From the IMG/VR virus record IMGVR_UViG_3300011337_000669: DNA of 64,000 bases, one strand, 5' to 3'. The DNA is from a virus. Its lineage: Duplodnaviria > Caudoviricetes. The position numbers were made by a program, and so were the translations under genes. Below are positions 6 to 62,196 of this stretch, one piece after another (position 1 is the first letter of the stretch; each line of letters opens with the position of its first letter). The notes below the pieces were generated by a model. The model was given only the letters and a program-made list of their open reading frames with translations. It was not told where the DNA came from and did not search any database.

Positions 6-872
6 TTATAATTGACTTTCTGCCGTGACTTTGACGTTGGATAACATCCATCCCGCGTCACATAGTTGGTCACTGTAACAATTTCCCGTGAACCACGGAG
101 TTGATGACGGTCCTTTAGGTGAGTATCCTTCCCAATATGAAGGTGTTATCCACCATCCTTTTTCCATACTAGATTTTAATGTGGACATATCTATTGTTGT
201 ACCATCTGCTCCACCATCTGCCAATACATCATATATTACAGCACTATTTCCGTTTTGTGAAACAGATATTGTCATATTAGTATAATCAGAATTAAACACT
301 ATGGTCATGTCAAATGGTTTAGTGATATCTAATACATCTACTAAATTATGTGTACCTTTGGATGGGTTATCACTCATATTTGATGGAGTATAACAATCAT
401 CATTCAACGCCCCGCTTGTATACGAATACTCAAATCTTTGTTGATTATTTAAATGAATTGTTTGTTGGAATATTCTATTTCCGTTTGTTTCCATAAAATC
501 AATCTCATTACAATATGGAGAACCTGCATTTCCTGCATCACAATAGTTAGTTCCTTTAGGTTGAACTGAATTGTTAACCATGTAAAAAGAAGCGTTTAAC
601 CAATTGTTCTTTTGTACGCTGTTTGGTGCCAATCCTGACAAATCAATTGTTGCAGTAATTTTGGATATGTTCTTATATCCATGAGTTGACACAACCCGAC
701 CTGGATTAAATGTAACACTTGAATCTGTAATAACAGGATCGAGTGTTGGATTACACCAATCACTAACCCAATCTTCTTCAAATGTAACATCATACGTTGT
801 ATTCGTAACAGTTTTTGGTTGACATCCGAATACCAATAATACCATTAAACCAAGGATAAATAATTTTTTCAT
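6..872 (-). CDS. Secreted lipoprotein with GH7-like (clan GH-B) glycoside hydrolase motifs
   Basis: Signal peptide MKKLFILGLMVLLVFGC (lipobox Cys17). Motifs IDLSGL, LNASFYMV, GTNYCDA, CNEIDFMETN (ExDxxE), LDITKPF, SQNG, SYW and LSNVKV occur in the same order as in GH7 enzymes. Confidence 0.6.
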   Translation of the reverse strand: MKKLFILGLMVLLVFGCQPKTVTNTTYDVTFEEDWVSDWCNPTLDPVITDSSVTFNPGRVVSTHGYKNISKITATIDLSGLAPNSVQKNNWLNASFYMVNNSVQPKGTNYCDAGNAGSPYCNEIDFMETNGNRIFQQTIHLNNQQRFEYSYTSGALNDDCYTPSNMSDNPSKGTHNLVDVLDITKPFDMTIVFNSDYTNMTISVSQNGNSAVIYDVLADGGADGTTIDMSTLKSSMEKGWWITPSYWEGYSPKGPSSTPWFTGNCYSDQLCDAGWMLSNVKVTAESQL

Positions 873-884
873 AGTTGTGTTTTA

Positions 885-1223
885 TCAGAAAACTCTTAAG
901 AAATGTCCTGCGAGTGCTAACAATCCAACAATGATTGGAACGTAGGTTTTTGATCCACCCATAAGTGATAAGTGCATTACGACCGCAGCACTCATGAATG
1001 ATGCGATTAAAATTGCTCCGAACAATGATGTAGTCGGAATCAAAAGTAATACAACTCCTAATAATTCACCTAATCCTGTAACAACTCTATACTTCTCTAA
1101 CTTCATGAATGCGAAGTTCCCCACCATTTCTTGTGTTCCAACAAGTTTATCGATTGCACCTTTTCCTAAAAAGAGTGCTGTGATTACGGATAGTACCCAT
1201 CCGATAATTGATAAAATTTCCAT
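885..1223 (-). CDS. DoxX-like membrane protein
   Basis: Four hydrophobic segments; GLGELLGVVLLLIP and GAILIASFMSAAVVMHL resemble DoxX-family patterns. Confidence 0.7.
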   Translation of the reverse strand: MEILSIIGWVLSVITALFLGKGAIDKLVGTQEMVGNFAFMKLEKYRVVTGLGELLGVVLLLIPTTSLFGAILIASFMSAAVVMHLSLMGGSKTYVPIIVGLLALAGHFLRVF

Positions 1224-1257: not shown

Positions 1258-1482
1258 TTATTCTTCGACATCTTCCTCCTCATCTATTTCTCCACTACAA
1301 CGGTATTCAACCTCATCTCTGTATGAAGTGACATCTTGCTGGTGTTCCACACCATCGCATTCGTCCCAAGGACAATCTTCAACTATTTGTAACGCTTCTT
1401 CTTCTGTTTCAGCCTCAACGTGAAGGGTCCACGCCTCTTCCACATATCTCTCTGCAATAATGATAAATTTCTTCTTTGCCAT
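1258..1482 (-). CDS. Small acidic hypothetical protein (paralog of next gene)
   Basis: MAKKKFIIIAER...AWT...CPWDECD; clearly homologous to 1490..1744. Confidence 0.75.
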   Translation of the reverse strand: MAKKKFIIIAERYVEEAWTLHVEAETEEEALQIVEDCPWDECDGVEHQQDVTSYRDEVEYRCSGEIDEEEDVEE

Positions 1483-1489
1483 AACTTTT

Positions 1490-1744
1490 TTATTTTTTAT
1501 ATTTTTCTTCTAATTTTTTTAATTCTTCTTCATTCAAATCTTGTTCGTCATCTAATGAATATTCAATGTCATATGAATCAGTATAAACATTTTCATCATC
1601 GTGGTGATAGATATCATCGCATTCTCCATCAGGACAATTTTCAACTAATTCTAATGCGTCATCGTAATTTTCTGCCAAAACACTATATGTCCACGCGTGG
1701 ACATATGTCCTTTCCGCAATAATTGTAAACTTTTTCTTTGCCAT
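1490..1744 (-). CDS. Small acidic hypothetical protein (paralog of previous gene)
   Basis: MAKKKFTIIAER...AWT...CPDGECD; tandem duplicate. Confidence 0.75.
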   Translation of the reverse strand: MAKKKFTIIAERTYVHAWTYSVLAENYDDALELVENCPDGECDDIYHHDDENVYTDSYDIEYSLDDEQDLNEEELKKLEEKYKK

Positions 1745-5679: not shown

Positions 5680-6044
5680 CTTTGGTTGTTATCATAAGAT
5701 TTTACAGATGGTAACCCACTATACTCACAAAACAATTCTTCTCTCTCTTTTTCCAACTTCTCTTTTACTTCATTAGAAAAATACATACCATCCGATTCCA
5801 TATCAGCAATAGTTCTATCGAGAGTTTTGATTAATTTAACCTTGTCTTCTTTCGTATGTTTAGTATCGTCAAACAATCGTTCCATCATATCATACACTGC
5901 GTCTCTACCAAACTTTTTCCGAATTGGAGTGTATGTGTATTCTTCTTTTTCCATTTTAGAGAATTCTCTAAAGCAGCCTACAATAAAGATTAAAAATCCA
6001 GTTGCTACAAATGCAGATAAGATTATTACATCAAGATTTTCCAT
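5676..6044 (-). CDS. Membrane-anchored hypothetical protein
   Basis: N-terminal TM segment, then a helical domain ending CEYSGLPS. Confidence 0.75.
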   Translation of the reverse strand: MENLDVIILSAFVATGFLIFIVGCFREFSKMEKEEYTYTPIRKKFGRDAVYDMMERLFDDTKHTKEDKVKLIKTLDRTIADMESDGMYFSNEVKEKLEKEREELFCEYSGLPSVKSYDNNQR

Positions 6045-6216
6045 TTCTACCCTTGAGATTAAAGATTATTACAAAAAGCAAAATGGTAGGACACCACAAT
6101 CCAATGAAGATTGCCTTGAGAGGGTCGTCCAAAACTACGAAATAATATTCCGACACAGCAATCAGACTCAATACAATCACCAGGAGCGCTAACTCCGATT
6201 TTTTAAATTTATTCAT
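6031..6216 (-). CDS. Small two-TM membrane protein
   Basis: Two hydrophobic helices; AIFIGLWCPTIL. Confidence 0.7.
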   Translation of the reverse strand: MNKFKKSELALLVIVLSLIAVSEYYFVVLDDPLKAIFIGLWCPTILLFVIIFNLKGRNGKS

Positions 6217-6238
6217 GTTCCCTTTTTTTAGTTGATTA

Positions 6239-6246
6239 CAAAGGTA
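6239..6246 (-). promoter_or_regulatory. Bacteroidota-type -7 element TACCTTTG
   Basis: TAnnTTTG match upstream of the 6216 operon. Confidence 0.6.
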
Positions 6247-6284
6247 AATGAAATAAACGAGTTAAAAAAGTTTTGATATAAAAT

Positions 6285-6680
6285 TTATTCCCAAGTTCCT
6301 TCAGAGATGATTGTTGGTTTCTCGTTCCTGTCAATCATTGCCCATTCCGCTTTAACTAATCCAAACGGTTTAAAACATTCCATGACCTGTTCCAAAGCGA
6401 AACACTTACAACTATAGATGTCAAACTGTATCATTGGTAATTCCAAATTATCCCAACAATGAAGACTACAATGTGATGTTGCTAGTGTTACCGTACCTGT
6501 CAACCCTTCATTACCTGGATCCGATACATATACACTTGTTGGACCAGCAACAACCTTCATCCCCACCGTTTCAACCAAGTTTATAAACCATTTGTTTAAT
6601 ACCTCCTCTTCTTTGGGAGGATTAGTTACCCAACATTTAACCAATAAATGTTGGTGATAGGGATTGAATTTTTCCATCAA
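6285..6680 (-). CDS. speD: S-adenosylmethionine decarboxylase-like proenzyme (pyruvoyl-dependent)
   Basis: GLTGTVTLATSHCSLHCW (self-cleavage SH motif) and QFDIYSCK match the AdoMetDC class 1b pattern. Confidence 0.8.
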   Translation of the reverse strand: MMEKFNPYHQHLLVKCWVTNPPKEEEVLNKWFINLVETVGMKVVAGPTSVYVSDPGNEGLTGTVTLATSHCSLHCWDNLELPMIQFDIYSCKCFALEQVMECFKPFGLVKAEWAMIDRNEKPTIISEGTWE

Positions 6681-6793
6681 TATTATATGTAATTTTTTTA
6701 CATATATATCAGGATTTTGGAAAAAATTAATTAATCACAATTATCAAGATGAAAACAAGTTTGTCCCGTGCCTTCAATTTTTCATTATTGAGA

Positions 6794-6801
6794 TATTTAT
6801 A
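6794..6801 (+). promoter_or_regulatory. Phage TATTTATA promoter-like motif
   Basis: gaTATTTATA 6 nt before the ATG at 6808; the same motif recurs before at least 15 genes. Confidence 0.6.
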
Positions 6802-6807
6802 TAATAA

Positions 6808-7593
6808 ATGAGTAATATGTCCAAAAAATTATGTATAAAGTGTAATATTGAAAAGAATTTTTGTGAATTTCATAAATCAGTAAAATCTAAAGATGGGTTG
6901 GTGACTTATTGTAAAGAATGTAGAAAATTAATCAGTGCTGACTATAATAAAAAATATTCTGATAAGATCTCAATAAAAAGAAAAAAATATAAAGAAGAAA
7001 ATCCCGAAAAAATTAAAAATATTAACAAAATATCAGGGAAAAAATATAAAGAAAATAATAAGGATAAACTAAAACTTCAAAGTAAATTGTATAGAGAAAA
7101 AAATAAAGACAAAATAAAAGAACGGCACAAATTATATAAAGAAAAAAATAAAGACAAAATAAAAGAATATAATTCAAAAAATGCTGAATACATTAAAAAT
7201 TACAAAAAAAATCACTATCAAAAAAATAAAGTAATAATAAATGAAAAAATGAATGAAAAATACCATTCTGATTCAACATTCAAATTAATATGTTTAATTA
7301 GAGGAAGAATAAATAAGTTCTTAAAAATAAAAAATGTAGGAAAAAATAATTCAACATTTAATATGATTGGATGTTCTCCTTTAGAATTAAAAAATCATTT
7401 AGAAATTTTATTTACTGAAGGAATGTCTTGGGAAAATCATGATTTATATGGATGGCATATTGACCACATAATTCCTTTATCTTCAGCTAAAACCGAGGAA
7501 GAAATATATCAACTTTGTCATTATACAAATCTTCAGCCACTTTGGGCTGAAGATAATTTGAAAAAGGGTGATAAGTTAGATTATTTCTTATAA
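6808..7593 (+). CDS. HNH-type free-standing endonuclease (paralog 1 of 3)
   Basis: N-terminal CxxC Zn module, Lys/Glu/Tyr-rich middle, C-terminal WHIDHIIPLSS...HYTNLQPLWAEDNLKKG. Confidence 0.85.
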   Translation: MSNMSKKLCIKCNIEKNFCEFHKSVKSKDGLVTYCKECRKLISADYNKKYSDKISIKRKKYKEENPEKIKNINKISGKKYKENNKDKLKLQSKLYREKNKDKIKERHKLYKEKNKDKIKEYNSKNAEYIKNYKKNHYQKNKVIINEKMNEKYHSDSTFKLICLIRGRINKFLKIKNVGKNNSTFNMIGCSPLELKNHLEILFTEGMSWENHDLYGWHIDHIIPLSSAKTEEEIYQLCHYTNLQPLWAEDNLKKGDKLDYFL

Positions 7594-7892
7594 CAATCTT
7601 CACATAATTGTCCAGACCCTTCCACATAAAAAAACCTCATATCAATATGTGTAGAACGTAAGTATGAAGTCTTCTTACCACACACAACACAAGTATCATA
7701 GTCATCAGGACGATTTATAGCGGTCACCAGTCCATCTTCGTTGATAGTTAGACCAACATGTTCATCATCAATTTGAGGACCTTCTAAGTCCCTCTTTGCT
7801 TGCCAAAATCTATCATGGACTTTCTTACCCATATCATAGTAATTTGATGTAGATAAAATCTCTTCTTCAGTAAATGTAACTTTGATTGACAT
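7581..7892 (-). CDS. Hypothetical protein with C-terminal Zn-ribbon
   Basis: CVVCG...YVEGSGQLCEDC. Confidence 0.75.
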   Translation of the reverse strand: MSIKVTFTEEEILSTSNYYDMGKKVHDRFWQAKRDLEGPQIDDEHVGLTINEDGLVTAINRPDDYDTCVVCGKKTSYLRSTHIDMRFFYVEGSGQLCEDCYKK

Positions 7893-7954
7893 AATATGTT
7901 TTTTATATTCAAAACATAATTAGACAAAAAGAAAAAATAAATGTATTTATCAAT

Positions 7955-8320
7955 ATGATTGACACAAAAAAACTATCAGAGAAATTAAAATATTTAATGG
8001 AACAAGAATCAAATCGACAATTCGAAATATTTGATTTGGATGTGGATTTTTATGACGGAAACAGTGGATATCAATTATTCATTAAGTTTGACTACTTTGG
8101 GGTAATCGATTCTCAGATGCCAGGCTTTGCCACGGATATATCTAAAATGATAGGAAAAATAGAAAAAATTGTATCCAAAGTTACAATCACACCTGAAAAA
8201 AAATTATCTTTGTCTCAGGAAGTTGAGGTCGAATCTTTTATCGATCAAATTGATTATAAGATTGAAGATAGACATATTTTTACTCTTTCTTTTTTAGTTC
8301 ACTATCTTGATAATAATTAA
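7955..8320 (+). CDS. Hypothetical protein
   Basis: ORF track; TATTTAT at 7944-7950; N-terminal LSEKLKYLMEQ. Confidence 0.75.
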   Translation: MIDTKKLSEKLKYLMEQESNRQFEIFDLDVDFYDGNSGYQLFIKFDYFGVIDSQMPGFATDISKMIGKIEKIVSKVTITPEKKLSLSQEVEVESFIDQIDYKIEDRHIFTLSFLVHYLDNN

Positions 8321-8323
8321 TAT

Positions 8324-9154
8324 ATGAACGAGAAATTAAAAAAAATCGTCCTAAAACTTGAGGACTCAATCAAAAAATTTGATTCAATACAGGACTTGTA
8401 TTTCAAATTGAAGATAATTGCTATATCTCAGTCAGATTATTTTTCCTATTTAGGTCCAGACAACTTAATTAAATTAACCTTATACATTTACTCATACAAA
8501 ATGACAAAAGGTTTTGATATGGGTGATAAAATGATAAACAATTTATCATTTGCCGAATTGGCAACCCCATATGAACAACAATACTTGAAAACTTGCGAAC
8601 AATGTGAGGGAGATGGAGAGATGAAATGTCTATATTGTGGTGGAACCCATGAAATCAATTGTAAAAAGTGTAAAGGAGAGGGAGAAATAGATTGTGAATA
8701 TTGTAACCCTGAAGTATATTCATATGAGTGTGATGAATGTTTTGGTGAAGAGAGGGTCGATTGTGACGAATGTTATGGTAGAGGAGTTGTAAAATGTGAG
8801 GAATGTGATGTAAATGGAACAGTCGAATGTGATGAATGTGAAGGGCAAGGGGAAATCGAAACGGATGAAGTTGTAGTACGATTTGTTTTTATCGCAACTT
8901 GGAGCAAGAGAATCAAAGACCAATGTGAACTAAGTGTTGGAACAAACACCCCAATTATGTCTGAAGAGGAATTTTTGTCATTGGAATCTGACTTTATAAT
9001 ATTATCTTCCGGCGAAGGTCATCAAATTTTAGATGTTGATCCATATCAAATGTATTGTTTAAGTTATTCTGATGAACCAGCAATAAGTCTACATTCACAT
9101 TCGATGAACATACTACCTACCAACAAAACGAAAAACGCAGAATATTGGAAATAA
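8324..9154 (+). CDS. Protein with DnaJ-type CxxCxGxG zinc-finger repeats
   Basis: Eight CxxC pairs (CEQCEGDG, CKKCKGEG, CDECYGRG, CDECEGQG and others); no J-domain HPD. Confidence 0.8.
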   Translation: MNEKLKKIVLKLEDSIKKFDSIQDLYFKLKIIAISQSDYFSYLGPDNLIKLTLYIYSYKMTKGFDMGDKMINNLSFAELATPYEQQYLKTCEQCEGDGEMKCLYCGGTHEINCKKCKGEGEIDCEYCNPEVYSYECDECFGEERVDCDECYGRGVVKCEECDVNGTVECDECEGQGEIETDEVVVRFVFIATWSKRIKDQCELSVGTNTPIMSEEEFLSLESDFIILSSGEGHQILDVDPYQMYCLSYSDEPAISLHSHSMNILPTNKTKNAEYWK

Positions 9155-44398: not shown

Positions 44399-45217
44399 TT
44401 ATGAAATCGCTCTTCCTTTCATTTTTTCCCAATCTCTGTTTTTACGGATTTCATCATTTGTTTTTTGTGCCGCAATCAACACATTATCAGTTGTACTTAA
44501 CTGTGTGGTAAGGTAAATGAGTGCAGCCAAGTCTTTTGGAAAACAGTGTCCTCCGAATCCAAAATCACCATCAGGTCCAGGAACCCCCCAATGTGATTTA
44601 CCTAATCGATTATCCATTGTCGCGTATTCAACTACCTTATCGTAGTCAATTCCAAGTTTTCCACACAATTGATAAATTTCATTCGCGAACGATACTTTCA
44701 CTGACAGGAAAGTATTAGTTAAATACTTAACCATTTCAGCGTGAGTGGAATCAGTCTTGATTATATGAGAGTTAGGAAAAACTTTCGAAAAAATTTGTTT
44801 GAGTTCTGTTGTCGCAGGTCTTGGTCCCCCTAATATAATTCTATTTTGGTTCTCATAATCACTTACCGCATTTCTTTCGGTGAGAAATTCCGGATTAAAT
44901 ACAATTTGTAAATTCGGGTATAAAGAATTGATTCTTACTGTGGTTCCTGGAGAGACTGTGGATTTAATAACTACTATCTCACTTTTTCCGAAGTCAGAAA
45001 TATCTTTTATTGTATCCTCGACTAAGGTAGTATTACAATTACCATCTTGATTCATTGGTGTTGGTAAACACACGAATACAATTTTGCTTCCTATGGTGTC
45101 TATTTTTAATGAATTACACTTTGTAGAATCAAGGTCATAAGTGTTAACCTCATAATACTTTTTGAATTTTTGATAAACAGCGTTACCAACAAATCCTTGT
45201 CCAACAATTCCAATCAT
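44399..45217 (-). CDS. UDP-glucose/GDP-mannose dehydrogenase family protein
   Basis: GIVGQGFVG, FVCLPTP, IKST, FNPEFL, AEMVKYLTN, GFGGHCFPKD. Confidence 0.92.
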   Translation of the reverse strand: MIGIVGQGFVGNAVYQKFKKYYEVNTYDLDSTKCNSLKIDTIGSKIVFVCLPTPMNQDGNCNTTLVEDTIKDISDFGKSEIVVIKSTVSPGTTVRINSLYPNLQIVFNPEFLTERNAVSDYENQNRIILGGPRPATTELKQIFSKVFPNSHIIKTDSTHAEMVKYLTNTFLSVKVSFANEIYQLCGKLGIDYDKVVEYATMDNRLGKSHWGVPGPDGDFGFGGHCFPKDLAALIYLTTQLSTTDNVLIAAQKTNDEIRKNRDWEKMKGRAIS

Positions 45218-46065
45218 AAGTTTTGAATATAATTTTTCAATCTATCTTTAGGTTCCCAACCAAGTCTTTCTAACGTGTCATTGTTTTCTCTCAAGGTCAC
45301 TCTATAATTTCCTTTTTGTTCTGGTATGTGAAGTTTATCAACTCCGAATTTTTCTTGGAACATTTCATAAACTTGGTTAATCGAATAGTTAGTTCCTGTA
45401 CCTAATTCCCAAGCATCATCATGTTTTTCACCACTGATAGTTATTTTATATAATCCATCAATGATATCCTCAACGTGAGTAAAATCACGTCTTTGTTCTC
45501 CGTCACCAACAATGGTTATCGGTAACCCATCTCTAACCTGTCTTCTCCATATCCCGATTACGGCCGCCCAATCTCCATCAACAATTTCTTTCGGACCATA
45601 TACGTTGTAGAATCTCGTAATTTCTACTTCAACACCATAACACTTTTGATATAGTTTACACAATTCTTCTCCCAAATGTTTGAAACAAGCATATGGCGAT
45701 TGAAACGGATCATGCCATCTTGATGATGATCCCGAATAGATAACCTTAACATTGAATCGTCTTGCCCATTCCAAAACAAATTTAGTCCCAATTGTATTAA
45801 CTCTGAAAGTTTCATTCGGATTCTCGAAGGAAGGTTGAATTCTAGATAATGCTGCCAAATGATAGACTAAATCAAAGTCATTACCATCCAAATCTTCTAT
45901 AGACTCAATATCTCCCTTGAGGTAGGTACAACCTTCTATATGGTTGTCTTCAGTGCCACTATCGTAGTTGTCTAAAGAAAAAACTTCATGTCCTTCTTTC
46001 AATAACCTATCGATAAGATTAGAACCAATGAATCCCGCCCCACCCGTTACTAATACTTTCTTCAT
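45214..46065 (-). CDS. NAD-dependent sugar epimerase/dehydratase
   Basis: VTGGAGFIGS, HLAA, YACFK (YxxxK), RYF-like RFYNVYGP, RDFTHVED. Confidence 0.93.
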   Translation of the reverse strand: MKKVLVTGGAGFIGSNLIDRLLKEGHEVFSLDNYDSGTEDNHIEGCTYLKGDIESIEDLDGNDFDLVYHLAALSRIQPSFENPNETFRVNTIGTKFVLEWARRFNVKVIYSGSSSRWHDPFQSPYACFKHLGEELCKLYQKCYGVEVEITRFYNVYGPKEIVDGDWAAVIGIWRRQVRDGLPITIVGDGEQRRDFTHVEDIIDGLYKITISGEKHDDAWELGTGTNYSINQVYEMFQEKFGVDKLHIPEQKGNYRVTLRENNDTLERLGWEPKDRLKNYIQNL

Positions 46066-60696: not shown

Positions 60697-62196
60697 TTAA
60701 TTGATATTGTATTTTGCTTTATTGTCATTGTAAATTTGACTTATTTCTGCGGCACTTAGTTCTCTATTAAAAAAAAGTATCAACCCAATATTGGCATCCA
60801 TATTCACTCCAGCACCATCATCTCTCACCCAACCTATACACACTTTATTGACAGCAGTATTTGGGATATTATTAATTAATGGATCCGATTTATCTAAATT
60901 TCCATTCACATATACTATTTCTGTACCATTTCCATAAGTAGTAGCTACGCAAACATAGGAAGTAGTAGTCGGCGCAACCCCGCTTGAATTAAACCAAGTT
61001 CCTCGTCCTCCGCAAGAACCACCAGAATATTTACCTCTATCTCCAATAGCAAGCGGGTGTATTTGGGTCCCTTGACAAGAATTATCTGCCGGTCCAAGAC
61101 TCAATAGAAATCGGGAAGAGGTGGTTGCATTTGGTTTAAAAAAGGCAATTGCAGTATAAGGACTATTTCCTAACGGTAAATTGTTGTAAGTTGTGGAAAC
61201 CATCGCTCTTAATGAGTTAATTGTATCGGTAGTTTTAATTGCCTTAATACCATTATCGATAATAAATTGAGGAGAAGGCGTAGACCAATAAATATGATTA
61301 TTACTTCCACTGATATCAAACCAAGTAGTTCCAGAACCGGGGTAACTTAATGGATTACTGGCGTCCAAATTCAAAACCAGCCCATTGATTAGTCCAGGTG
61401 TTACTGAAGGAGTTGGAGTTGTGGTATTTGTTGGAGTATTAGTTGGAATTGGAGTGTTTGTTGGTGTCTCACTATTAGTTGGTGTTGGTGTTGGTGTCAC
61501 ATTAAATGTTGATCCAGATATTTCACCTACTAAATAATATTGAGATGACCCTGTCATGTTAAATGTTAATCCAGAGAATGAATTCTCCTGTGTTAGATTA
61601 TTATAGTCGTAATCTGTAAATGTTTGAGTATAACCAGTTGTTTGTCCCGATAAAATTTCAACAGAACTATTAATTAATAATGGAGTTCCTGTAATAGTCC
61701 CTAAAACATCAGTAAAATTAATTATTATGTCGTTATTTAATGGTTTCGTTACAGTGGCTTGGTATCCAGCACCTACCGAACCTTCAAAGTAAAATCCCTC
61801 CAAAATAACATTAACAGTATTATAACTTGTATAAAATCCGTTATCATTTAACCATGTTACAGCATCATTGGTATTTGTGAATGGTGGTTGACCATTTTTG
61901 GCCCCAACATAGTTTGCTAAATTCAAGAAGGCACCATCAGTTTTATCCCCTAAAGGTGTTCCCCAAAATCCAACATTGGCAGTTTCGGTTACTCCTGAAG
62001 GAACTGGTTGTCCACCAGGCCTAGCATTACCAATGATATATCTTAAATCTTCATCAGGTCCTCCCCACCATACAACTCCACCATAATCGGCAGCGTAATC
62101 TGCCACAATATTACCGACTACTAAATCTCCATATTGTGTTGTTCCCGATATTGGAGAACCTGTGTTATTATATGCGAAAGGTCTTGAAAGTGCCAT
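60697..62196 (-). CDS. Virion protein with Thr-Pro linker and C-terminal LamG/ConA-like domain
   Basis: TPT tract then GLVLNLDASNPLSYPGSGTTWFDISG...YVNG...IG...FNRELSAAEISQIY; TATTTATA at 62207-62214. Confidence 0.75.
   Translation of the reverse strand: MALSRPFAYNNTGSPISGTTQYGDLVVGNIVADYAADYGGVVWWGGPDEDLRYIIGNARPGGQPVPSGVTETANVGFWGTPLGDKTDGAFLNLANYVGAKNGQPPFTNTNDAVTWLNDNGFYTSYNTVNVILEGFYFEGSVGAGYQATVTKPLNNDIIINFTDVLGTITGTPLLINSSVEILSGQTTGYTQTFTDYDYNNLTQENSFSGLTFNMTGSSQYYLVGEISGSTFNVTPTPTPTNSETPTNTPIPTNTPTNTTTPTPSVTPGLINGLVLNLDASNPLSYPGSGTTWFDISGSNNHIYWSTPSPQFIIDNGIKAIKTTDTINSLRAMVSTTYNNLPLGNSPYTAIAFFKPNATTSSRFLLSLGPADNSCQGTQIHPLAIGDRGKYSGGSCGGRGTWFNSSGVAPTTTSYVCVATTYGNGTEIVYVNGNLDKSDPLINNIPNTAVNKVCIGWVRDDGAGVNMDANIGLILFFNRELSAAEISQIYNDNKAKYNIN

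Follow-up and report, generated by a model that had tools for sequence, protein, structure and literature searches.

A predicted lipoprotein of a very large freshwater phage is distantly related to GH7 cellulases

The DNA analysed here, a stretch of 64,000 nucleotides from a tailed-phage record (referred to as the window), carries on the minus strand at positions 6..872 a stop-free open reading frame whose translation, P0001, comprises 288 residues. When the family HMM was run against the six-frame translation of the window it gave a single match, so P0001 is the sole copy. An earlier note, made from the letters alone, had described this reading frame together with nine motifs in a fixed order, and all nine are found in P0001: IDLSGL (residues 76–81), LNASFYMV (residues 92–99), GTNYCDA (residues 107–113; 534..554, minus strand), CNEIDFMETN (residues 121–130; 483..512, minus strand), TIH (residues 138–140; 453..461, minus strand), LDITKPFDMTIVF (residues 181–193), SQNG (residues 205–208), MSTLKSSMEKGWWITPSYW (residues 229–247) and LSNVKV (residues 277–282). 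GTNYCDA aligns with the YCDA/YCDS segment of GH7 enzymes, and its residues Tyr110, Cys111 and Asp112 are near-invariant. CNEIDFMETN is assigned as the catalytic strand from alignment, conservation and the structural model, while TIH, with Thr138 and His140 invariant, aligns with the conserved GH7 histidine that follows this strand. The C-terminal block, which extends from MSTLKSSMEKGWWITPSYW to Trp260 (93..188, minus strand), contains Trp247 and Trp260, which align with two GH7 tryptophans (SLW...NWLD). The classical GH7 motifs that the note had listed also have their counterparts in PDB sequences, which show CNEMDIWEAN, YCDAQ, VDTSRPFTVVTQF and GMVLVFSIW...NWLD.

The first 17 residues (822..872, minus strand), read directly from the sequence, form a putative signal peptide that ends in the lipobox VFGC. 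In the N-terminal sequence, MKKLFILGLMVLLVFGC, a basic start and a hydrophobic core precede the lipobox at residues 14–17, which was recognised by a regular-expression match; the lipoprotein signal with Cys17 proposed in the earlier note thus agrees with the sequence criteria for a bacterial lipoprotein. Almost all of the 80 loci that were examined have a lipobox, with varying sequences (LAAC, LIGC, LFSC, LLSC), and the lipobox column holds a cysteine in 143 of the 199 aligned sequences of clade B, the phage clade to which P0001 belongs. Six further cysteines of P0001 are conserved (residues 40, 111, 121, 160, 265 and 271), which fits with an oxidising, extracytoplasmic location. As judged by these features, P0001 is likely to be exported and lipid-anchored. 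Anchoring is not essential to function, however, because in close relatives (L010–L013 and L015) a charged segment replaces the hydrophobic signal core, with the cysteine also lost in L013 and L015, and yet purifying selection persists in these relatives.

Upstream of P0001 and in the same orientation lies the gene for a DoxX-like integral membrane protein of 112 residues (885..1223, minus strand). Locus L006, whose GH7-like protein is 99 % identical to P0001, has an open reading frame of the same length at the matching upstream position that matches DoxX_2 of Pfam at E 4.5e-9. Because only 12 nucleotides separate the stop of the DoxX-like gene from the start of P0001 and the two are co-oriented, they probably form one transcription unit. 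A contig from an RNA library (780-1210) spans their junction; this is weak evidence and, as RNA libraries may carry DNA, the cover of P0001 by such contigs is a weak hint of expression, and stretches that lack cover are uninformative. Matches to sigma-70-type promoters around P0001 were not above shuffled expectation. Shine-Dalgarno motifs were found upstream of 6 of the 61 window genes, which corresponds to background, and in 0–6 % of genes in GH groups 1, 2, 4 and 7. Bacteroidota, whose glycanases include surface lipoproteins, typically show such a scarcity of these motifs.

Among the related loci, the GH7-like gene lies between ribonucleotide reductase (RNR) subunits, with a glutaredoxin, in 37 loci. 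It also repeatedly adjoins a second phage lipoprotein, with which it is fused in three contigs. This partner lipoprotein, which in L006 is encoded at 7690-8388 and in L057 is naturally fused to the GH7-like protein, had no Pfam match and gave only chance-level matches in the PDB profile search, and its AlphaFold model has a pLDDT of 39; its nearest Atlas clusters are Bacteroidota lipoproteins with a score of 0.88, which lies below 0.9 and is taken as a lead only. The accessory domains fused to GH7-like modules elsewhere (L028, L066, P0127, P0129 and others) likewise had no Pfam match.

The source of P0001 is a very large freshwater phage. Small DNA runs labelled 'organism A' contain its locus at full identity. 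PHROG matches in the window include a primase, an HNH protein, a DNA methylase and an SbcC-like protein, the window genes are dense and intron-free, and a related contig (G004) encodes Terminase_6N. No capsid, portal or tail genes were seen within the window, and they are placed outside it. The SbcC-like protein was considered as a clue to the host and set aside, as it matched only very distant jumbo phages. The window also encodes a UDP-glucose dehydrogenase and a sugar epimerase. Several relatives of P0001 could point to another origin, namely that the element infects eukaryotic plankton as a virus or is mis-binned DNA of a eukaryote, that P0001 is a protist-derived GH7 and that its lipobox is an ordinary signal peptide: the nearest Pfam-positive relatives come from dinoflagellates and other protists, a dinoflagellate pair is nested in the phage clade, one viral match (L062) is labelled as a giant-virus MAG, and L074 and P0134 share a different N-terminus. 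We consider this origin highly improbable, given the phage-type genes and PHROG-only families of the window, the absence of introns from its dense genes, the terminase on the related contig, the canonical lipobox cysteine in most copies with its varied surrounding sequences, and the nearest Atlas clusters to P0001, which are 'Viruses 100 %, Uroviricota'. A search of the related contigs for the NCLDV capsid family gave no match, but as the control genomes likewise gave none, this result carries no weight.

P0001 is truly related, though very remotely, to the GH7 cellulases that fungi and protists make. When all PDB sequences were searched, the family profile matched 8pof (RsSymEG1) at E 1.9e-8, and P0001 alone matched the same chain with a phmmer E of 7e-4. 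Comparison by hhalign with the short GH7 modules of marine protists gave a probability of 99.6 %, E 6.3e-25 and 26 % identity over 193 columns, in an alignment that spans IDLSGL to LSNVKV. An exhaustive phmmer search with P0001 reached proteins above the threshold of Pfam PF00840; these PF00840-positive proteins score E 2e-25 to 2e-9 with the family HMM (E values scaled to 1.84 billion library sequences), and every distant sequence match that bears any Pfam domain bears PF00840. The classical fungal GH7 enzymes in the PDB had no direct sequence match to P0001 or its profile and are joined to it via the short GH7 profile, at E 1e-26 to 1e-35; this profile reaches E 2.9e-39 with 8pof and 4e-26 with T. 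reesei Cel7A. The search against Pfam Glyco_hydro_7 that the earlier note had called for was negative: with an E limit as high as 10, PF00840 does not detect P0001, and 19 of its closer relatives gave no match at E up to 0.01-0.1. A profile word-search added no further named relatives. Two other matches were rejected, DUF3244 of Pfam at a chance-level E of 0.05 and phrog_9091 of PHROGs, a chance-level match on the signal peptide. On the strength of these alignments the similarity between P0001 and GH7 far exceeds what chance would give, and P0001 is judged homologous to GH7. P0001 is missed by the Pfam GH7 model and may be either a formal member of GH7 or the representative of a new sister family; the silence of PF00840 further suggests that the specificity of the protein may by now lie far from cellulose.

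The AlphaFold model of P0001, which has a pLDDT of 91.4, was compared with known structures by VIA-align. The best match was again 8pof, with a Z score of 18.0, a root mean square deviation of 3.2 Å over 227 aligned residues and 21 % identity, followed by Cel7B (Z 17.0) and a Cel7 cellobiohydrolase (Z 16.5), so that GH7 enzymes hold the top three places with 227–230 residues aligned. Foldseek matches at the top were mostly GH7, with classical fungal GH7 structures at E 2e-9 to 1e-7. The model thus predicts a compact GH-B jelly-roll that is closest to the small GH7 endoglucanases, in line with the GH-B jelly-roll anticipated in the earlier note. That P0001 is instead a divergent GH16 enzyme, resembling GH7 through the shared clan fold and ExDxxE, is nevertheless conceivable in that ExDxxE is the GH16 motif as well, GH16 enzymes are common in bacteria and present in viruses, and GH16 structures reach Z scores of 12–15.6 against the model. 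The highest of these belongs to VvEG16, though, with the other chains at 13.6 or less and 173–208 residues aligned, such that GH7 stands above GH16 in Z score, aligned length and TM score alike; among Atlas clusters, GH7 gave TM scores of 0.66-0.68 and GH16 0.54-0.55. In sequence, P0001 had no match to the Pfam GH16 family PF00722 at E up to 10, and at the same limit neither P0001 nor the family profile matched any of the many GH16 chains in the PDB, from which the GH7 chain was drawn at 1.9e-8. Moreover, the distant Pfam-bearing matches are all PF00840, and the GH7-specific YCDA...C, T-x-H and two C-terminal tryptophans are conserved outside the catalytic strand. An assignment to GH16 is therefore very hard to sustain, and nesting within that family, which the earlier note had named as one outcome that would overturn its reading, finds no support.

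CNEIDFMETN aligns with CNELDIWEAN of 8pof and CPEVDIMEAN of the short GH7 modules. Glu123-Ile-Asp125-Phe-Met-Glu128 and the following His140 match the motif of 8pof and the short GH7 modules residue for residue, and residues 123–130 of the model correspond to the β-strand that carries ExDxxE; the residues previously proposed as catalytic are thus placed on the catalytic strand and aligned with the GH7 triad. By this alignment Glu123 is the predicted nucleophile, Asp125 its helper and Glu128 the predicted acid/base. Among 199 distinct clade B relatives, Glu123 and Asp125 are each conserved in 199 of 199 and Glu128 in 198, with His140 invariant or nearly so, although these sequences diverge to less than 35 % identity. 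Trp247 is kept in 175 and Trp260 in 173 of the same 199 sequences; their counterparts in Cel7A are the sugar-stacking platforms on either side of the cleavage site. The conservation of Trp247 and Trp260 together with Asn93, Tyr97, Tyr110 and Asp112 speaks for a similar pyranose-chain substrate, as far as can be read from the alignment. P0001 is under purifying selection, with dN/dS values of 0.09-0.16 against its relatives. ConA-like jelly-rolls, many of which match the model at Z 10-12, are often lectins, and receptor-blocking phage lipoproteins such as T5 Llp are known. P0001 might for this reason be a non-catalytic, glycan-binding lectin on a GH-B scaffold, serving for example in receptor masking or exclusion at a surface polysaccharide or porin glycan. 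A lectin would not be expected to retain so strictly the complete catalytic set (nucleophile, Asp, acid/base and His) across 199 sequences that fall below 35 % identity, and we regard this role as very unlikely. P0001 is very probably a retaining endo-β-glycanase of the GH7 lineage. Sequence profiles, fold, invariance of the catalytic residues and distribution agree on this point, as the earlier note had suggested in calling the protein a compact GH7-like glycanase of clan GH-B.

Relatives of P0001 were found on viral contigs at 70 IMG/VR loci and in 5 of about 185,000 species genomes, where the copies nest inside phage clades. Among deposited phages, tblastn with P0001 found no match in 50,697 records, and megablast with 20 kb of the window found none. 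In a tree built without classical fungal GH7 and GH16 sequences, and hence unrooted with respect to the clan, phage clade B is split from clade A, the Pfam-positive short GH7 sequences, with 100/100 support. The phage clade also contains a small number of bacterial copies and a dinoflagellate pair; there are bacterial copies that carry a dockerin (Planctomycetes) or stand in a chromosomal context (Haliea). About 200 distinct sequences of the clade are annotated only as hypothetical proteins, and our literature search found no report of a viral or bacterial GH7. The clade of P0001 is unannotated and occurs almost only on tailed-phage contigs. The undescribed viral branch of clan GH-B envisaged in the earlier note is thus recovered as a separate, fully supported clade; its description as prokaryotic or viral holds in that the clade is overwhelmingly viral, and is to be qualified by the few bacterial copies and the one dinoflagellate pair within it. 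A bolder reading, which we think improbable, is that this clade is the prokaryotic-world branch of GH7, with eukaryotic GH7 descending from a phage or bacterial lineage, or with an ancient protist gene having been captured and then radiated among tailed phages whose hosts belong to two or more bacterial phyla. The protein would then be an envelope device for destroying receptors or clearing matrix, sometimes joined to the second lipoprotein, rather than a nutritional cellulase.

The reading that we favour, to which we assign a probability of roughly 60 %, is that P0001 is a lipid-anchored retaining endo-β-glycanase of the GH7 lineage with a role at the envelope that serves the phage. In the proposed mechanism, the jumbo phage makes P0001 in its bacterial host, the protein would be exported by Sec and lipidated at Cys17, and the enzyme, probably with three disulfides formed there from its six conserved cysteines, would sit on the envelope. 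There it would cut within the chains of a β-1,4-type gluco-configured polymer by double displacement; endo-cutting is proposed because P0001 is without the long tunnel loops of the cellobiohydrolases. Its target on the infected cell may be a β-glucan that is host-made or cell-associated, such as a capsule, an EPS or biofilm glucan or a glycan receptor, and the benefit would be either easier release and dispersal of progeny or a block of re-adsorption and superinfection. This phage-serving cleavage of host or cell-associated β-glucan is, taken by itself, a tentative proposal. The rarity of cellular copies and their nesting in phage clades, together with the repeated adjacency to and fusion with a phage lipoprotein, argue for it over a gene borrowed from the host.

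P0001 could alternatively be the product of an auxiliary metabolic gene, a surface or periplasmic glycanase that breaks down environmental β-glucans (algal or plant cellulose, mixed-linkage glucan, xyloglucan or laminarin-like polymers) and supplies a polysaccharide-eating host with sugar and energy that go into making phage. Such a role would suit the Bacteroidota-like scarcity of Shine-Dalgarno motifs in the window and GH groups, the Bacteroidota clusters that are, as a lead only at 0.88, nearest to the partner lipoprotein, and the UDP-glucose dehydrogenase and sugar epimerase of the window; the site between RNR subunits with glutaredoxin in 37 loci is a classic spot for metabolic add-on genes, and the dockerin-bearing and chromosomal copies are compatible with enzymes that simply degrade polysaccharide outside the cell. 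Host homologues of auxiliary metabolic genes are normally abundant, however, whereas the cellular copies of P0001 are very rare and nested in phage clades. P0001 is also absent from deposited phages and from named bacterial glycan-utilisation loci, and neither a carbohydrate-binding module nor a partner transporter was recognised. The metabolic role therefore appears rather unlikely.

No cellulases are better studied or of greater industrial importance than those found in GH7. To our knowledge GH7 is regarded as a family of eukaryotes only. In prokaryotes, GH48 and other families are said to take its place (PMC7571853). If the activity of P0001 is confirmed, the phage clade would bring viruses of bacteria into the GH7 lineage and would place a further class of enzyme among the few phage lipoproteins that act on the envelope. 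It would also provide a minimal scaffold of about 270 residues, easily expressed in bacteria, for the study of GH7 catalysis, and it would become testable where GH7 arose and in which direction genes passed among protists, bacteria and phages.

Among known systems, P0001 is best matched by sequence and structure to RsSymEG1 (8pof; 321 residues) of a termite-gut protist. The two are alike in their compact size class, the CNE-x-D-x-x-E-x-N...H centre, YCDA and the C-terminal tryptophan block. RsSymEG1 is, however, eukaryotic, secreted without lipidation, Pfam GH7-positive and a cellulase by its entry title, whereas P0001 is shorter still, PF00840-negative and part of a separate clade. The short GH7 modules of dinoflagellates and other marine protists (Prorocentrum cordatum and Breviolum, for example), about 270 residues in length, have the invariant residues in common with P0001 and differ in that they are arranged in tandem within long eukaryotic proteins that are membrane-anchored or bear CBM1, and fall in clade A; the GH7 endo-β-1,4-glucanase of Breviolum acts on the alga's own cellulosic wall (PMC10438907). 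As compact protist GH7 enzymes such as RsSymEG1 and the dinoflagellate modules already exist, the small size of P0001 is not new by itself. The fungal GH7 enzymes (T. reesei Cel7A and Cel7B, Humicola Cel7B) have the fold and catalytic motif in common with P0001, but they are eukaryotic, glycosylated proteins of 370-440 residues, often with CBM1, whose long loops build a tunnel or deep cleft. GH16 enzymes (VvEG16, bacterial laminarinases, lichenases and XETs) have the GH-B jelly-roll, ExDxxE on one strand and a similar size, as P0001 does, and are common as bacterial lipoproteins; they differ in lacking YCDA...C and T-x-H and in having no detectable sequence relationship to P0001. The viral GH-B proteins in BFVD, which include the GH16-like proteins of chlorovirus and pithovirus and 'laminarinase-like' phage proteins, are virus-encoded like P0001 and have ConA-like or GH16-type jelly-rolls, and they match P0001 weakly in structure (best Foldseek E 1e-6, TM 0.41-0.45), with no GH7-like protein among these matches. 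Finally, T5 Llp is a phage lipoprotein that acts as a small receptor blocker at the envelope of the infected cell and has no enzyme fold, while P0001, to judge from its aligned residues, appears to keep the full active site of a glycosidase.

The GH7-like gene (6..872 (-)) was called and translated as an ORF of 288 codons with no interruption, and it occurs once in the window. The earlier note had read nine GH7-like motifs in its product; all nine are found, between residues 76 and 282 and in the order claimed, and our reading of the N-terminus, MKKLFILGLMVLLVFGC, likewise bears out the proposed lipoprotein signal, which is of the textbook type with its cysteine at Cys17. Pairwise dN/dS values against relatives of 70–92% identity are 0.09–0.16, which marks the gene as real and subject to purifying selection. 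A lipobox stands at the start of nearly all homologues and varies in kind (LAAC, LIGC, LFSC, LLSC). In a sub-clade with 70–75% identity to the window protein (loci L010, L011, L012, L013 and L015, gene at ~6001-6867 in each), the hydrophobic core of the signal is swapped for an amphipathic segment rich in Lys, such as MEKIIKIYEQIKKLFGC, and in L013 and L015 the lipobox Cys is also gone. Purifying selection on the domain persists in this sub-clade (dN/dS 0.14), and anchoring is thus not indispensable. Extra domains are joined to the GH7-like module at two further loci, one of ~175 residues at the N-terminus (L028:5470-6867, in group 2 of our sets of related loci, with proteins of 465–470 residues) and one of ~155 residues at the C-terminus (L066:5959-7242); neither added domain matched Pfam.

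Searches with the window protein gave a single chance match in Pfam and, in PHROGs, a match confined to the signal peptide. Against all PDB sequences, phmmer returned one meaningful match, 8pof ('Putative glycosyl hydrolase family 7', 321 residues; E 7e-4), with an alignment spanning GTNYCDA...CNEIDFMETN...TIH...KPF. With a profile built from 32 family members, the match to this entry extends over 157 positions with E 1.9e-8, and up to E 10 that search returned no chain of GH16. When phmmer was run exhaustively over 1.84 billion representatives, just 67 clusters matched. The distant ones (27–32% identity) are long proteins above the Pfam gathering threshold for PF00840, and with E-values scaled to the whole library the family HMM matches these proteins at 2e-25 to 2e-9. 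Fifteen modules from the PF00840-positive proteins were aligned, and hhalign joined this alignment to that of the phage family with 99.6% probability (E 6.3e-25, 193 columns, from IDLSGL to LSNVKV). The module alignment in turn finds 8pof at 2.9e-39, endoglucanase I at ~1e-32 and T. reesei Cel7A (1cel) at 4e-26 in the PDB. The profile, hhalign and module links are all statistically significant, which carries the GH7 resemblance beyond a likeness of motifs. Because statistics link every step, the homology chain from the phage protein to the classical cellulases is closed at the sequence level.

AlphaFold2 with the family alignment predicted a nearly all-beta structure (pLDDT 91.4, pTM 0.88). 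When the model was compared exhaustively with 48,161 PDB representatives, the first three ranks were taken by GH7 enzymes: 8pof, which is RsSymEG1, 'a unique form of smaller GH7 endoglucanases' (Z 18.0, rmsd 3.2 Å, 227 aligned), Cel7B (6su8; Z 17.0, rmsd 3.3 Å, 229 aligned) and a Cel7 cellobiohydrolase (2rfw; Z 16.5, rmsd 3.2 Å, 230 aligned). GH16 begins at rank 4 with VvEG16 (5dzg; Z 15.6, rmsd 3.1 Å, 182 aligned), and the remaining GH16 chains, from rank 5 on, reach Z 13.6 or less with 173–208 aligned. GH7 also made up most of the Foldseek matches, both in the PDB and among AlphaFold DB clusters. The predicted fold, with GH7 structures ahead of GH16, agrees with the kinship that had been proposed from motifs. 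The three nearest ESM Atlas clusters are unnamed and annotated 'Viruses 100 %, commonest Uroviricota' (TM 0.75–0.87), followed by PF00840 clusters (0.66–0.68) and then GH16 clusters (0.54–0.55). BFVD, which covers known viral proteins, held no close structure, its best being GH16-like at TM 0.41–0.45.

The catalytic set is intact almost throughout the clade. Among 199 distinct members, E123, D125, T138 and H140 are found in 199, E128, N130, Y110 and C111 in 198, and D112 and C121 in 197, and the eukaryotic short GH7 proteins have the same residues in the corresponding columns. In particular, E123, D125, E128 and H140 align on the E/D/E/H of CNELDIWEAN...H in 8pof (HMMER) and of CPEVDIMEAN...H in the protist modules (hhalign), and the motif is predicted to sit on strand 123–130 of the model. 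The two Trp of the GH7 SLW...NWLD block, which in Cel7A presumably stack on sugars on both sides of the scissile bond, are matched in the alignments by W247 and W260. Six further cysteines are conserved (40, 111, 121, 160, 265 and 271), fitting with three disulfides and an extracytoplasmic location. The protein would be exported by Sec and lipidated at Cys17, and its disulfides would then form, leaving the enzyme anchored at the envelope. Cutting would be of the endo type by double displacement, with E123 as putative nucleophile and E128 as acid/base, and the substrate may be a beta-1,4-type gluco-configured polymer held in an open cleft, which we propose since the protein lacks the tunnel loops seen in cellobiohydrolases.

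Sixty dereplicated domains, all from the family or its short GH7 relatives, form two clades in a maximum-likelihood tree, with support of 100/100 for the split between them. Clade A holds the Pfam-positive short GH7 proteins of marine eukaryotes, drawn from MERC and EukProt, one of them from Prorocentrum cordatum; sequences from Pirum gemmata and from one further EukProt entry also belong here. All phage copies fall in clade B, separate from these eukaryotic GH7 proteins, which accords with the prokaryotic or viral branch suggested by the earlier note. Clade B also includes, at nested positions, the MAG copies from bacteria, three sequences whose N-terminus differs (one lies on a contig that bears a giant-virus MAG label) and, on a long branch, a dinoflagellate pair, P0156 and P0157, from Biecheleria cincta (EukProt). 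A protein of the ichthyosporean Pirum gemmata (P0180) is Pfam-negative, yet groups with the eukaryotic clade. Together with the Biecheleria pair, this placement suggests that genes have passed between protists and the phage/bacterial pool, and a tree of this scope is compatible with either direction. Bacterial copies (L001-L005) are rare, and those of Halieaceae are lipoproteins with a Gly/Thr-rich linker. The copy on a 212-kb Haliea MAG contig (L004:5986-6969) lies between UvrB-like and PurK/PurE-like genes, judged from translated ORF starts, and has a GC content below that of its flanks; it is thus chromosomal and was probably acquired by transfer. The Planctomycetes copy (L005) and the related protein P0132 have a dockerin-like N-terminal segment.

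The window gene lies 12 nt downstream of a same-strand gene for a 112-residue DoxX-like membrane protein. Just upstream of this pair are tandem paralogues (1258-1482 (-) and 1490-1744 (-)) encoding small acidic proteins of 74 and 84 residues, which both start MAKKKF.IIAER and carry a CP..EC motif. At 37 loci from four groups (L016:51-3631 and 36 others), the GH7-like gene stands exactly between the two ribonucleotide reductase genes, large subunit and small subunit, with a glutaredoxin gene after them; these copies come from many phages with GC of ~40–48%. A second phage lipoprotein of ~232 residues adjoins the gene in groups 1, 2, 3 and 7, and a distant copy lies ~5 kb away in a group-0 locus (L020). 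In L006, a contig whose GH7-like protein is 99% identical, this partner is found at 7690-8388, a position just past the left edge of the window, and in L057 (6001-7536) and L051 (3037-4671)/L052 it forms an in-frame C-terminal extension of the GH7-like domain. Its invariant motifs are FCGASGA.PTG, EGCA.CP, SESNMF.MP and GPLNEAAVPLRKA; neither Pfam nor the PDB gave a family assignment, and AlphaFold no confident structure (pLDDT 39). The association is one-sided, since the partner is far more widespread, occurring in 308 viral stretches, mostly with no GH7-like gene nearby, and having one as a neighbour in 4 of its 80 best loci.

The window is AT-rich (GC ~32%) and encodes a phage-type primase, HNH, DNA methylase and SbcC-like proteins and several PHROG-only families; related contigs of 117–163 kb have an estimated completeness of ~49%. 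Adjoining genes at 44399-46065 (-) match phage UDP-glucose dehydrogenase (phrog_9148) and nucleotide-sugar epimerase (phrog_540), and by these matches the phage has its own sugar-nucleotide metabolism. A 499-residue protein (60697-62196 (-)) with a C-terminal Laminin_G_3/ConA-like lectin domain (Pfam E 7e-11) is a further jelly-roll glycan-binding candidate, unrelated in sequence to the GH7-like gene. The family comprises 70 loci in IMG/VR, no member among 50,697 deposited phage genomes, and five copies among 185,579 species represented by one genome each (four Halieaceae MAGs and one Planctomycetes MAG). Riverine metagenomes and small runs from one organism contain the locus itself at full identity. 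Metatranscriptome contigs (three runs, two studies) cover much of the gene, one crossing the junction to the upstream gene, which hints weakly at expression. In the window (6 of 61 genes) and in groups 1, 2, 4 and 7, Shine-Dalgarno motifs occur at the background rate; they reach 35–41% in groups 0 and 5, which are related phages with GC of 39–44%. A near-background frequency is typical of Bacteroidota and their phages, and the pattern tentatively suggests hosts from at least two phyla.

The role that we consider likelier is one that serves the phage through action on a glycan associated with the host, such as release and dispersal, receptor destruction or exclusion, because cellular homologues are so rare and nested in phage clades and because a second phage lipoprotein is repeatedly found with the gene. 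Nearly as good is a nutritional auxiliary gene serving a polysaccharide-feeding host, for which the likely Bacteroidota-type host, the position among ribonucleotide reductase genes and the dockerin-bearing bacterial copies all speak.

GH7 has been treated as a eukaryotic family, with prokaryotes served by GH48 and others (PMC7571853), and the GH7 endoglucanases of dinoflagellates act on the alga's own wall (PMC10438907). In the literature searched, which did not extend to CAZy, GH7-like families of phages or bacteria are not reported. Compactness by itself is no novelty, since 8pof already belongs to this size class. The novelty lies in a distinct and strongly conserved clade that Pfam does not recognise, bearing a bacterial lipoprotein signal and distributed across tailed phages.
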